Positions 4,396-51,657 of a stretch of 64,000 nt of DNA are shown here, piece by piece. Both the position numbers and the translations under genes were made by a program. The stretch is from an uncultured delta proteobacterium (GTDB taxonomy: Bacteria > Desulfobacterota > RBG-13-43-22), in contig CAVQFQ010000005.1 in assembly GCA_963711835.1 (NCBI GenBank), positions 96,001-160,000 on the forward strand, read 5' to 3'. Position 1 is the first letter of the stretch, and each line of letters begins with the position of its first letter. The notes under the pieces are model-generated. The model was not told where the DNA came from. It did not search any database and was given only the letters and a program-made list of their open reading frames with translations.

Positions 4396-6385
4396 GTTGG
4401 AGTAGGAATCAGGGTTGCCCCTGACCCCCTCCACAGATCCCAGCGTGCGGGACTACCGCACTGGGCTCCTACCTTGGGTAATGACGTACCGGCCCAAGTC
4501 GGGATAAGGATGATAGATTCGCGGACGGGGTAACCATCGGGATATGAATCGGTTCATACGCTCCCAGTTCAGGCGGTGTCGTTGGCTTCGTCTCTGGAGC
4601 GTTTTGTACCACAGATGACTGACATGATACCTAAAGGCCTCCATTTTATCGCTGTTCCCCGGTACACCATAGTACCGGTAGTGGCCCAGCAGTACCACTC
4701 GAAGCCATTGCCCGACCTCCGGTATGGGGTCGTGAAGCCTTCGTCTGAGTTCCTCCTTCAACTGCCTTCAGCTTTCCTCGGATTCGTTTCCCCATACTTC
4801 GGCGGTTCACGACAAACTTACCGTTTCGGGTCCGTCCGCAGCTATGGGTGAACCCCAGAAAATCAAAGGTCTCCGGCTTCCCTTGGCCCCGCTTGGCCCG
4901 GTTTTCCGCCGCAAACCGCCCAAACTCCAGAAGGCGGGTCTTGTCGGCGTTCAGTTCCAGTCCAAATCGGTGAAAACGTTCTCGCAGCGCTTCCAGAAAC
5001 CGGATGGCCTCTTCCCGATACTGAAAGCCAATAATGAAGTCGTCGGCAAATCGCACGATGATCATCTCCCCGTGGGCTTGCTTTCGTCTCCATTGGTCGG
5101 CCCAAAGATCCAGCACATAGTGCAGGTAGATGTTGGCCAGCAGAGGGCTGATACTCCCCCCTTGCGGCACTCCTTCTTCCGGCAGGGATTTCTTCCCCTC
5201 TTCCATTACACCGGCCTGCAACCACTTCCGTATGTGCCGGATTACCCGTTTGTCCGCTATCCGGTGCTCGACGAACTTCACCAGCCATTCGTGGTCGATG
5301 GAGTCAAAATAACCCCGAATGTCGGCGTCCAGCACCCAGCTTACCTTTCTCGTCATGATCCCGGCCATCAGGGCGTTCAGCGCCTCATGGGGACTGCGCC
5401 CCGGTCGGAATCCATACGAGAAGCCGAGGAAATCCGTTTCGTAGATGCCGTTCAATACCTCCACCAGTGCCCGCTGGACGATCTTGTCCTCCAGGACCGT
5501 CACCCCCAGCGGCCGCTGTCTTCCCATCCGGTTTCGGTATGTAGGCCCTACGAACCGGCTTGGCTCGGTACGCTCCGCGTTTCAGCCGTTCGGAGAGATC
5601 TCTGGAGGTTCTTCTCCCGATCTTCCCCGTAGTGCCGCCACGTCTCCCCGTCTATCCCCGGTGCGGCTTCCCGTTTCAGTTCCCAAGTAGGCCTCCCGGA
5701 GTCGGTCCAGGTCATAGACATGGTGCCAGAGCGCGGTAAACTGCATCCTTCCTATCCCGGCAGGCAGCCTGCCGTATCCGTTCCACCGCACTGGGCAAGC
5801 CATTCAGTTCGAGTTGGTCTTCCTTCCGGATCAATGGTCCTTCAGTGATTCCCATCCCGTCCTCTTCTCCGGCCCTGGGTCCGGTGCTTGTTTTGGTGGA
5901 ACGTCTTCCCCTTGGTCAGGCCCCTTCCCTCCACCTCCTCCGCCAGTCGGATTCTCACCGACTCTTGTTCGGAGGCTTCTCCGGTACCTATGGGCCTGTC
6001 CGACTTCCCCGGTTCGTTCATCGCTGTCGTGTCCCCTTGGGGTTCACAGCGCGTCCCCTGGTTCCATCTCCCAAGGGCAAACCAGGGATCTCCCGGTTCC
6101 CGTGCAGAAAGCTTCCAGACGTGCGCAGGGTCTCCGACCACGCGGGGCCAATACACTTCTCGCCTTAGCGAAGTGCATCGTGTTGCCTTCCGTGCACGTC
6201 GACGCCGTCGGCACCCCGATCTTGAGCCACCTTTCGCGGCTCAATACCTGGCCCGCCTTTTCCCCTGTCAACGCTTCGCCTATGCCCTTACGGACATCTG
6301 CGCATGACTCGGGGCCGATGTGGCTGGCTATGCCTTCATCGTATGGAACTTTCATCCACTACTTTCTGCCGGTCTCCCGGCGCAA
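4396..6385 (-). mobile_element. Group II intron, bacterial class E-like, ~1.99 kb
   Basis: 5' end (G)TTGCGCCGGGAGACCGGCAGAAAG. Domain V GAGCCCAGTGCGGTAGTCCCGCACGCTGGGATCTGTGGAGGGGG. Domain VI ends CCTACTCCAAC. Internal RT ORF. Class assignment rests on recalled consensus only. Confidence 0.93.
4453..5855 (-). CDS. ltrA: Intron-encoded reverse transcriptase/maturase without an endonuclease domain; at least five apparent +1 frameshifts
   Basis: ATG 5855 after AGAGGA. Motifs FTALWHHVY, RPLGVTVLEDKIVQRA, SYGFRPGRS, DADIRGYFD, GVPQGGSISPLLANIYLH, RFADD, FDFLGFTH and maturase GHYRYYGVPGN. Frame breaks near 5750, 5680, 5600, 5525 and 4760. Confidence 0.9.
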
Positions 6386-8784: not shown

Positions 8785-8901
8785 TAGATTCTTACATCTT
8801 TTAGTCTGAGAATTTATCTCTAACTTTCCAAAATAAGGTGTTGGGGGGACCCCCCAACACCATTTCTTCAAGATGTGAAAAAAATTTAAAACATCTTTGT
8901 T
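8785..8901 (-). repeat. Dispersed repeat family A, copy 1 (empty: no internal cassette)
   Basis: Minus strand GAAGAAAT-GGTGTTGGGGGG-T-CCCCCCAACACC-TTATTTTGGAAAGTTAGAGATAAATTCTCAGACTAAAAGATGTAAGAATC. Flanks match the copies at 19.5 kb and 28.4 kb. Confidence 0.85.
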
Positions 8902-8907
8902 TGGGCT

Positions 8908-10147: not shown

Positions 10148-10621
10148 ATGAAACATCTTTCAATCCTTTTTATGGTTTTTTTCCTGGGCCCCTTTTGGAA
10201 CCCAGCCTCCGCCACGAACGTGAACCCTCCGGCGGCCGGCCCGCAAAAACCGGAGACGGCAGTGGAAGAACCCAAATTCAAATCCGGAACGATTCAGAAA
10301 AAAGATAATGCCGAATCTCCCAAGGAAGAAATCAAAGAAGGCGGAAAGGCCGTCGGCCAGGGGGTAAAAGGGATCGGAAAAGGAATCGGTAAAGGGGTTA
10401 CGAATACCGGGAAAGGCGTTAAAAAAGCCTGGACCGGTGAGGAACAGAAAAAATCCGATTCCTCCCCCAAAGAAGATATCAAGGAAGGGGGAAAATCGGT
10501 CGGTCACGGTGTGAAGGATATTGGAAAGGGCATCGGCCAGGGTTTTAAAAATATGGGTAAGGGTGTCAAAAAAGCCTGGACCGGCGATAAAAAAGAAGGG
10601 TCTCCCCCGAAAAAGGAATGA
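10148..10621 (+). CDS. Secreted Gly/Lys-rich protein with two 49-aa tandem repeats
   Basis: RBS AGGAG, signal peptide MKHLSILFMVFFLGPFWNPASA, and the unit SPKE[ED]IKEGGK.VG.GVK.IGKGIG.G..N.GKGVKKAWTG twice at a 147 bp period. Confidence 0.75.
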   Translation: MKHLSILFMVFFLGPFWNPASATNVNPPAAGPQKPETAVEEPKFKSGTIQKKDNAESPKEEIKEGGKAVGQGVKGIGKGIGKGVTNTGKGVKKAWTGEEQKKSDSSPKEDIKEGGKSVGHGVKDIGKGIGQGFKNMGKGVKKAWTGDKKEGSPPKKE

Positions 10622-18964: not shown

Positions 18965-19540
18965 ATGGACCTCCTGAGCCTCGACACCAGGTTGTTTTAT
19001 TGGATTAACCAGGGGCATCGCAACGCCCTCTTTGACTGGATCATGCCTTGGGTTACCGAATTTGACCACTGGAAATGGTTCCTATTATCGGCCTGGATTA
19101 TTCTTTTTTTCCTGGGAGACCGGAAGGTAAAAATCAGATTAGGCGTATTGGTTCTTCTAGTGGGGGTTCTGGACTATTCCAATAGTTTTTTCTTTAAACA
19201 CCTTTTCGCCCGCCCCCGGCCCTGTAATTTCCTGACCGGAGTTCATAGCTTCTGGCCCTGCCCCCGCTCCTTTTCCTTCCCCTCCAATCATGCCGCCAAT
19301 ATCTTTGGGGCGGCCTTTTTTCTCGGCTATCTCTACCGGCCTTGGTCCCCACCCTTGCTTTTTACAGCAGCCCTGGTAGGTTATTCCCGGGTTTATGTGG
19401 GGGAGCATTATCCTTTTGATGTCCTGGCCGGAGCCGTACTGGGGGCCATAGGGGCCGGTGCCGCACTGGTCGTTTATATCTGGATGGGGACTTTCCTTAA
19501 GAAAAACCGTAAGGGAAAAATTCTAAACAAAGAACCTTGA
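18965..19540 (+). CDS. PAP2 family phosphatase (undecaprenyl-diphosphatase-like)
   Basis: K...ARPRP, SFPSNHA and SRVYVGEHYPFDVLAG. Confidence 0.95.
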   Translation: MDLLSLDTRLFYWINQGHRNALFDWIMPWVTEFDHWKWFLLSAWIILFFLGDRKVKIRLGVLVLLVGVLDYSNSFFFKHLFARPRPCNFLTGVHSFWPCPRSFSFPSNHAANIFGAAFFLGYLYRPWSPPLLFTAALVGYSRVYVGEHYPFDVLAGAVLGAIGAGAALVVYIWMGTFLKKNRKGKILNKEP

Positions 19541-19808
19541 AAATTTTGGTATCGTGATGAAATGCTGTAGGGGTGCCCTATTTTTTAAGTTGTCCACCCC
19601 CAAGCCATGAATCCCGCCTGGCGGGACAGGCCTTCACCCGAGCGGGAAATGGGCTGGAGTAAATGCCCTGCTATAAAATAAACTTAGTTATTCGGGCCGG
19701 ATTAGGGGCTCTTGGTCACCCTTTGGACAACATAAAAAATAGGGCACCCCTACAGCTAATTTTGGTAAGTTAGAGATAAATTCCCAAACTAAAAGATGGT
19801 AGAATCTA
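19526..19808 (+). repeat. Repeat family A, copy 2, carrying the internal cassette (19564-19756)
   Basis: Arms GCTGTAGGGGTGCCCTATTTTTTAAGTTGTCCA / TGGACAACATAAAAAATAGGGCACCCCTACAGC, then the family-A flank GGTAAGTTAGAGATAAATTCCCAAACTAAAAGATGGTAGAATC. Confidence 0.9.
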
Positions 19809-28173: not shown

Positions 28174-28390
28174 ACCAGGAGGTCCATGGGTTTTCATTTT
28201 TACCAAGAATTTAAAAAAAAACAAGTCTATTTCCTATCTGGTTATTTTTGTTTACAAAAAAGGCGTCCTGGGCTACTCTTAGCCCAAAGCAGTTCACAGG
28301 CAGCCCCCTGATTTTTAGCCGCGGGAATCCGCTTCCGGATCCCCTTACCCCTTCTATTGGAAATCAGAGGAAAAATGCTCAGAAATTACC

Positions 28391-28645
28391 AAGCAAAGCT
28401 ATTTGAAATTTTTTCTAAAGTTCTGAAGAAATGGTGGCGGTGAGTCTTATTTTTTTAAGTTGTCCGAAGGGTGACTAAGAACCCCTAATCCGGCCCGAAT
28501 AACTAAGTTTATGTTAGAGCAGGGCATTCATCCCGCCGAGGCGGGACTTATGGCTTTGGGGTGGACAACTCAAAAAATAAGACCCCCCACCACCTGATAT
28601 TGGAAAGTTAGAGATAAATTCCCAGAATTAAGAGGGATAGAATTT
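28391..28645 (+). repeat. Repeat family A, copy 3, carrying the cassette in inverted orientation (28433-28594)
   Basis: Same flanks as copies 1 and 2. The core GTCCGAAGGGTGACTAAG...GGCTTTGGGGTGGAC is the reverse complement of the copy 2 core, less ~33 bp. Confidence 0.9.
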
Positions 28646-28667
28646 CTTCAAAAATCAAACCGTTTCC

Positions 28668-40592: not shown

Positions 40593-40894
40593 TTATTAAG
40601 GGTCTCAAAATAATAGTGACCAACAGGGACCGGGGGGTCTTCTTTTCTGGGGTTGTCCAAAGGGTAACTCATCGCCCTATCCCGGCCCGGACGGCTAAAG
40701 GGGTTAGGTGCAGGGCATTCACTCAAGTCCGTTTCGGGCATTAGTGTAGGCCTGTCTCTGAATGTGATCCCGAATTTGGCCCGGCAAAGAAGCATTGGGC
40801 TTGAAGGTGGACAACCCAGAAAAGAAGACCCCCCGGTCCCATTTAAGTCAAGCTCCTCAATTTCATGTCAAGACTATTATGAGACCCTTAATAA
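40593..40894 (+). mobile_element. MITE family B, filled copy containing the longest cassette (40626-40840)
   Basis: TIRs TTATTAAGGGTCTCA...TGAGACCCTTAATAA. Inner 33 bp arms GGGACCGGGGGGTCTTCTTTTCTGGG(G)TTGTCCA. Core homologous to those at 19.6 kb and 28.5 kb. Confidence 0.88.
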
Positions 40895-51358: not shown

Positions 51359-51565
51359 CAATCCCCCCGGGCCTCAGTCAGGCAATAATTCGCCAATACC
51401 AAAACTTTTGAACGATCCTAAATTATTGGATTTCCGGATGCATATTTGGGTAGTTTAAAAAATAATTGGATCGGGGTCAATCGTATAATCAGCCGGCCTT
51501 CTTTTAATTTAGCTATTGACAAGACAGGCAAAGGATCCTATGAAAATCAAATTGCCTTTAATGCC

Positions 51566-51657
51566 TTATTAAGGCCTCAAAATAATAGTGACCAACAGGT
51601 TCCATTTAAGGCAAGCCCCGCAATTTCAGGTCAAGACTATTATGAGACCCTTAATAA
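51566..51657 (+). mobile_element. MITE family B, empty copy (92 bp)
   Basis: TTATTAAGGCCTCAAAATAATAGTGACCAACAGG-TTCC-ATTTAAGGCAAGC...CAAGACTATTATGAGACCCTTAATAA. Collinear with the 40593 copy but lacking ~210 bp. Confidence 0.88.

Follow-up and report, generated by a model that had tools for sequence, protein, structure and literature searches.

A shared inner passenger in putative composite MITEs with ends of different IS families in a Desulfobacterota genome

Several described systems come close to the elements analysed here. The bacterial MITEs Correia/NEMIS, RUP, ERIC, bcr1 and Chunjie of Geobacter are, in the accessible part of the source (PMC3184786), short, non-coding, intergenic and present in high copy number, and they combine IS-derived ends and family-type target duplications with a hairpin-forming interior. 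The present elements are likewise built in all of these respects. Unlike those MITEs, as far as that part of the source describes them, they carry one conserved interior in several apparently unrelated shells, including one without terminal repeats, and this interior has inner arms of its own, flips, and keeps a fixed spacing of boxes. MITE interiors are usually seen as remnants of one parent IS; here, one interior of fixed geometry is kept across four genera while the ends have switched between unrelated transposase families.

Two further systems deserve comparison. MITEPpu9/ssr9 of ISPpu9 is, according to the available sections of its source (PMC12288879), likewise non-coding and carried along by a transposase that acts in trans. 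However, ssr9 is a proven RNA flanked by the boxes of its own IS110, whereas the interior described here has no IS110 homology, has unrelated ends and is known here from DNA alone. The TIRtrons (TIRYT, TnpA-Y1 subclass 2.1) have, in the portions of PMC3733652 and PMC6006769 at hand, inverted repeats of similar length that are copy-specific yet matched inside each copy and carry a GGGG(A/T)C-like motif; in sequence, only this motif is shared, and we found no Y1 gene flanked by the inner arms of our elements. The open-access literature yielded no account of this family of interiors, or of an interior common to several IS families.

The window, as we call the whole stretch of DNA that was analysed, comprises 64,000 nucleotides from the genome of an uncultured delta proteobacterium (G000 in our naming). 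Its repeats consist of three nested layers: an outer shell of about 30-70 bp per side, a pair of inverted arms, and a core, the last two of which form what we call the passenger. As a whole, they are best explained, with a probability of roughly 0.6, as composite, non-autonomous MITEs with a shared fold-back DNA passenger. To judge from their sequences, the outer ends, of unrelated IS families, would likely supply movement in trans. The inner passenger probably forms a fold-back in its DNA, in which one 32-33-bp arm would serve as template for the other, and such fold-back copying would also flip and sometimes delete the core.

Anatomy and distribution

The features of the window are as follows.

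8785..8904, minus strand: core-less shell A, with only the outer 12 bp per arm left as a short hairpin; likely a collapse product
19523..19808, plus strand: copy 1, whole composite element in shell A, without terminal inverted repeat, CTA at both junctions
19564..19596, no strand: copy 1 left arm, 33 nt, inverted-repeat pairing
19589..19731, minus strand: copy 1 core, 143 bp, in the opposite orientation to that of copy 2, with a mini-hairpin (19611-19627) in place of part of the core
19724..19756, no strand: copy 1 right arm, inverted-repeat pairing
28389..28646, plus strand: copy 2, whole composite element in shell A
28433..28465, no strand: copy 2 left arm, imperfect partner of 28563-28594
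28459..28569, plus strand: copy 2 core, 111 bp, with a mini-hairpin (28530-28548) in place of the right half
28563..28594, no strand: copy 2 right arm, imperfect partner of the left arm
40599..40888, plus strand: copy 3, whole composite element in shell B, ends matching an IS630-family element, TA at 40597-40598 and 40889-40890
40626..40658, no strand: copy 3 left arm, inverted-repeat pairing
40652..40815, plus strand: copy 3 core, full length (164 bp), symmetric boxes at 40682-40688, 40710-40716, 40749-40754 and 40778-40784
40809..40840, no strand: copy 3 right arm, inverted-repeat pairing
51572..51651, plus strand: core-less shell B with IS630-type ends; likely a collapse product

A preliminary description of the window had reported these three copies, and all three are present with core and arms. 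Its arm pairs (CCCTAT/ATAGGG, TCTTAT/ATAAGA and TCTTCT/AGAAGA) were confirmed, the arms being complementary within each copy, and its statement that there is no credible open reading frame agrees with the lack of a Pfam match for the 106-aa frame that overlaps the passenger. The arms of copy 1 (19564-19596/19724-19756) are 97% complementary over 33 nt; those of copy 3 (40626-40651/40815-40840) are 100% complementary over 26 nt, and pairing then continues inward past a 1-nt bulge to GTTGTCC/GGACAAC. Although the flanks of copies 1 and 2 point the same way, the core of copy 1 is on the minus strand and hence inverted within a host repeat of the same kind. The genes around the copies are ordinary ones (PAP2, HD hydrolase, LptF, FolD, holin-like protein). 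An isolated end of shell C, with a few bases of the arm, lies at about 51365-51418 on the minus strand, some 150 bp from the core-less shell B.

The preliminary count of three proved far too low: an iterated profile search found 134 separate passenger loci in this genome, 105 of them near full length. Both arms are present in 118 of the 133 loci examined (one contig-edge copy was dropped), and by flank class these two-armed copies divide into D (45), C (30), A (20), B (17) and singles (6). The typical passenger is gene-less and measures about 215-230 bp, with arms of 32-33 bp and a core of about 165 bp. The arms end sharply on the outside and measure 31-34 bp in 106 of the 118 copies; of 88 metagenome copies, 70 have arms of 31-33 bp. 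GGGTC and TT(G/T)TCC are conserved within otherwise variable arms. The core has four short boxes in mirror arrangement, at a spacing of about 23/22/32/24-26/23 nt in the 150 of 199 cores that could be parsed. While the spacers between the boxes vary freely and core variation is high (mean column identity 68%), box sequence and spacing are kept across the four genera. The top peaks show no AA/TT periodicity of 10.5 bp. The structure may resemble integron attC sites, invertase sites or Tn3 ends. The inner AGGG/CCCT stem, which the preliminary description considered to be kept, is indeed present in the three window copies; among 63 family members, however, only 63.5% of cells pair and the outer pair is kept in 15.

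The cores of copies 1 and 2 are shortened, to 143 and 111 bp as compared with 164 bp, and in both a small TCCCG..CGGGA hairpin substitutes for part of the right core half. The genome contains 79 such mini-hairpins, and 36 of 118 cores have one, often in place of core sequence; they are a third mobile layer. The one long copy, a candidate for an autonomous form (G000:C10:53482-55974), turned out to be a DDE element of two ORFs, for an HTH protein and a PF01609 protein (L025:408-2555), unrelated to the passenger and inserted with a 9-bp duplication inside the mini-hairpin of a core.

A sequence-only model of the passenger gave hits in 20 of 21 family genomes, with each of the four genera represented. 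Outside the family, 146 genomes of the phylum were searched with tighter filters and 15 scored candidates apiece, and 0 had a hit. Among GTDB contigs, a pattern scan picked up 21 stretches; these came from three assembled genomes, by their titles two delta proteobacteria and one member of the Pseudomonadota. Of 121 stretches picked up in metagenomes, 88 had both arms, and the viral contigs searched gave 0 matches. One divergent passenger of sister-genus type, beside a shell-G-like end, was noticed in this genome (L078, G000:C17:767739-767903) and reflects either transfer or contamination of the bin.

Shells and their relation to IS ends

One of seven shell motifs lies within 100 nt of 252 of the 259 copies with arms, as against 5% of 400 random windows; the two host repeats of the preliminary description were thus too few. 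Two shells originate from known IS families. The ends of shell B match a 351-aa IS630-family element of a relative (L453, also L463): compared with the left end of the L453 element, 28 of 31 nt are identical at the right end of the shell and 23 of 28 nt at the left, with end scores of 25 and 18, respectively, against a shuffled maximum of 14. IS630 duplicates TA, and TA stands at both ends of 13 of 15 shell B copies. Shell G, from two sister genera, matches the ends of ISL3-family elements (L423, L430, L436 and L439) at 82-84% over 32-44 nt (E 2e-5 for 82% over 44 nt); ISL3 duplicates 8 bp. Unlike shells B and G, these autonomous IS630 and ISL3 elements contain no trace of the passenger, and neither kind was found in the present genome.

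The other shells are less readily placed. At its termini, shell C agrees with ISDesp5, an ISH6-family element, at 11 of 14 nt, a tentative assignment from a comparison by eye. An 8-bp duplication is seen in 22 of 27 shell C copies, and its AA....TT type is like AANATNTT in the accessible part of the ISDesp5 source (p-MULT 2; PMC3942029). No ISH6 locus with shell C ends was found in the family. Shell D has an 8-bp duplication in 26 of 38 copies. Terminal inverted repeats together with a target duplication are seen in shells B, C and D, but not in shell A, which has no terminal inverted repeat; of 12 shell A copies, 7 have CTA at each junction. No autonomous IS with homologous ends, and no parent among the transposase loci examined, was found for shells A, D, E and F, and the parent of shell A was likewise not found in five IS-rich relatives. 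Going by their end sequences, then, the shells appear to come from unrelated IS families, at least two (IS630 and ISL3) and probably three or more.

The composite elements, at about 260-390 bp, non-coding and dispersed, have the size and copy number of MITEs. The passenger alone does not behave as one: no target duplication was seen by eye at its arm ends, and nearly all of its copies lie inside shells. Since no transposase that matches shells B, C or D was found in this genome (89% complete), current mobility is only putative. Two side observations concern shell A. In a metagenome locus (L354), two shell-A elements are joined end to end via a single CTA, as in the junction of a circular intermediate, and at L486, L488, L490, L493 and L508-L511 the right end of shell A lies next to short tandem-repeat arrays, and no core of the passenger is present there, so that shell A may be a carrier of cargo in general.

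The same core type occurs in two shells: eight C-shell copies fall inside a well-supported clade of D-type cores, with near-identical cores in the two shell types. Most of these eight belong to one C subfamily, so there were maybe only one or a few transfer events. The D-type cores in C shells have the inner 24 bp of the arm in common, which would permit homologous exchange, and the passenger would pass between shells by recombination through its arms. Considering both the D-type cores in C shells and the unrelated shells, the idea that the module changes hosts is supported, and the earlier claim of a mobile, non-coding, hairpin-forming module within different host repeats holds in this form.

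Probable arm copying, core flips and probable core loss

The preliminary description read the covariation of the arms as compensatory change, and stated that G-U pairs favour one strand. Private substitutions, however, are found on both arms in 24 of 58 cases, as compared with 0 of 34 for the outer repeats of the same elements (p=2.7e-6), and among arm mismatches 39 are G-T and 43 A-C (p=0.74), so that neither strand is favoured. Because of these two results, the arm covariation is likely due to DNA copying of one arm from the other and not to RNA pairing, and selection on an RNA need not be invoked. The strand preference also disappears on folding, which is lower for the plus strand in only 11 of 21 cores. 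There is a caution here for RNA discovery: arm-to-arm DNA copying yields strong covariation without any RNA selection.

The core flips repeatedly. Both orientations occur in all four main shells (34/11, 26/4, 9/11 and 14/3, with a few weak calls), and on the core tree flips recur, with 7 changes for 8 inverted D copies. In the inverted D copies, a one-base bulge of the inner arm (scored by eye) follows the core in 8 of 11, stays with the shell in 2 and is erased in 1; the bulge mostly travels with the core, which places the flip exchange mostly within the arms. Core orientation is unbiased both with respect to the genes on either side (33 vs 36) and with respect to GC skew (45 vs 45).

Cores are probably also lost. 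Against 112 filled shells there are at most 29 complete core-less shells, some of them doubtful. The core-less shells mostly keep bases of the outer arm, and their deletion junctions are of several kinds, a combination that fits hairpin collapse; some junctions were seen twice. The core-less host repeats of the window retain outer arm bases as well and look like products of such collapse rather than targets before insertion. The core-less A shells do not form a clade in a tree of 88 columns that has almost no support.

Template switching has reportedly been described as inverting spacers. In the available part of the source, it also corrects the arms of inverted repeats in bacteria (PMC5941160), and we consider that replication template switching is quite probably the copying step here. 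By itself, template switching leaves the presence of a 32-33-bp arm in every shell without explanation, and it explains neither the near-absence of the passenger outside shells nor the persisting box mismatches.

What the passenger may be

How could a passenger outlast its shells? One possibility, which we put forward tentatively and would not quite bet on, is that the symmetric boxes with their fixed spacing are a cis DNA site that would favour copying of the carrier shell. The excess of filled over core-less shells would suit it. Shells do not strictly depend on the passenger, however: junctions without a core recur in some cases, and so do the shortened cores of 111 and 143 bp (four occurrences each), which speaks against the need for such a booster. 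These same core-less and shortened forms would suit a neutral origin, in which an old hairpin MITE was nested once and then spread as junk by ectopic recombination and gene conversion; so would the high variation of the core and the 24 bp of inner arm through which D-type cores could have entered C shells by homologous exchange. We nevertheless give neutrality little chance, considering that box sequences and spacings are kept across four genera despite the divergence of the spacers, that shells of unrelated families have no homology outside the passenger, and that the shorter core-less forms have not taken over. A bolder alternative, rather unlikely on present evidence, sees a hyperparasite of transposons: a fold-back module that captures any IS ends (IS630, ISL3, ISH6-like or non-TIR), replaces the transposase gene and is spread by the captured enzymes, outliving each shell across a whole bacterial order. 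If the passenger does boost mobility or capture ends, it would be a portable cis element that works with several transposases.

Perhaps, instead, the passenger is itself a mobile element that parasitizes transposons with an enzyme of its own, for example a single-strand HUH nuclease of the TIRYT type, which would recognise the 32-33-bp fold-back, insert into an IS and leave only the IS ends. The sharp arm length, constant across shells of unrelated sequence, the retention of GGGTC and TT(G/T)TCC in variable arms, the near-confinement of the passenger to IS-derived ends and the strong enrichment of the mini-hairpin in cores would all be in keeping with such an enzyme. This genome has nine long or broken Y1 (PF01797) genes of the TIRYT type (L001-L011, e.g., C12:141793 and C17:498780), and eight of these nine are flanked by 17-28-bp inverted repeats with GG(G/C)G(A/T)C-like starts that differ between copies and match within a copy. 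Nevertheless, the 12 Y1 loci of this genome and 29 of the family have no similarity to the core, and the passenger arms miss the consensus GGGG[AT][CG]A[CG] at position 7, reading GGGTC(T/C) at a place 8-9 bp inside the arm end rather than outermost. Y1 genes also occur in 21 of 21 family genomes, one of which has no passenger match; the arm ends lack a duplication (by eye); and no recurrent enzyme neighbour emerged when the 40 largest clusters of 578 adjacent ORFs were read by eye. Nor do the elements resemble REP/REPIN sequences, which are marked by a GT[AG]G tag at the base of a short palindrome and by a flanked RAYT gene, since GTAG is found only in some shell-A arms and the nearest Y1 gene of this genome is 3.7 kb from any copy. 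An enzyme of the passenger's own is thus improbable in our view, and the composite MITE with a fold-back passenger is preferred. Searches with the core against other loci were equally negative: family IS110, Y1, IS256, IS1595, IS4/IS5 and IS66 loci (165 loci, best E 0.066), 33 ISL3/ISH6-type loci (best E 0.74) and 30 IS630 loci gave no match.

The preliminary description favoured a different reading, that the core is a structured RNA or an orphan bridge/seek RNA of IS110/IS1111 elements acting in trans. Some of the evidence would suit an RNA. The conserved symmetric boxes pair in 94% of cells, the central stem has some double changes, and one coordinated four-position box switch between genera fits two small hairpins; at the pair 36-68 (CG 46, GC 15) it suits these more than a long rod, and it represents a single lineage event. 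Shell A, with its CTA junctions, its lack of terminal repeats and the end-to-end junction of L354, is like a circle-forming element, and in ssr9/MITEPpu9 there is precedent, in the available text of PMC12288879, for an IS110 transposase that moves an RNA cassette. The guide hypothesis found no further backing, however. The core has no similarity to 30 IS110 loci (best E 1.3) from 14 of the family's genomes plus the two of G000, and matches of the variable segments to their own flanks, the only flanks that the comparison covered, do not exceed those reached with shuffled sequence (6.4-6.5 vs 6.4-6.7 nt, n=147). Moreover, the same core sits in DDE-type shells, which need no guide. As for an RNA of any kind, folding of the core alone gives z scores of -0.92 (plus) and -0.76 (minus) over 21 cores, and copy 3 scores -0.63 and +0.39; covariation is strongest at a pair in an arm (3 events, 100% paired); and there is no strand or orientation bias. 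The passenger matches no known Rfam family at the gathering threshold: Rfam 15 gave none for the window copies, and ten other copies gave only sub-threshold miRNA-type hairpins and a neighbouring tRNA gene. Copy 3 is covered by contigs from three sediment metatranscriptomes; as assembled contigs on a multicopy repeat, these allow no inference about a transcript. A promoter scan of copy 3 gave two hits, neither of them entirely within the element. Altogether, an RNA function for the core, whether as a guide or otherwise, strikes us as very doubtful.

OMEGA and retron readings were also considered, and were dropped because no TnpB was found in this genome and its only reverse transcriptase is a group II intron protein; an IS1182-type DDE_Tnp_1_6 was not found in it either. 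The intron lies in the window, on the minus strand at 4646-6352, with an Rfam match to D1-D4 at 6128-6352 and the reverse transcriptase at 4646-5527. Elsewhere in the window, at 10316-10587, two 125-nt direct repeats that are 74% alike stand 147 nt apart inside an open reading frame of 179 aa.
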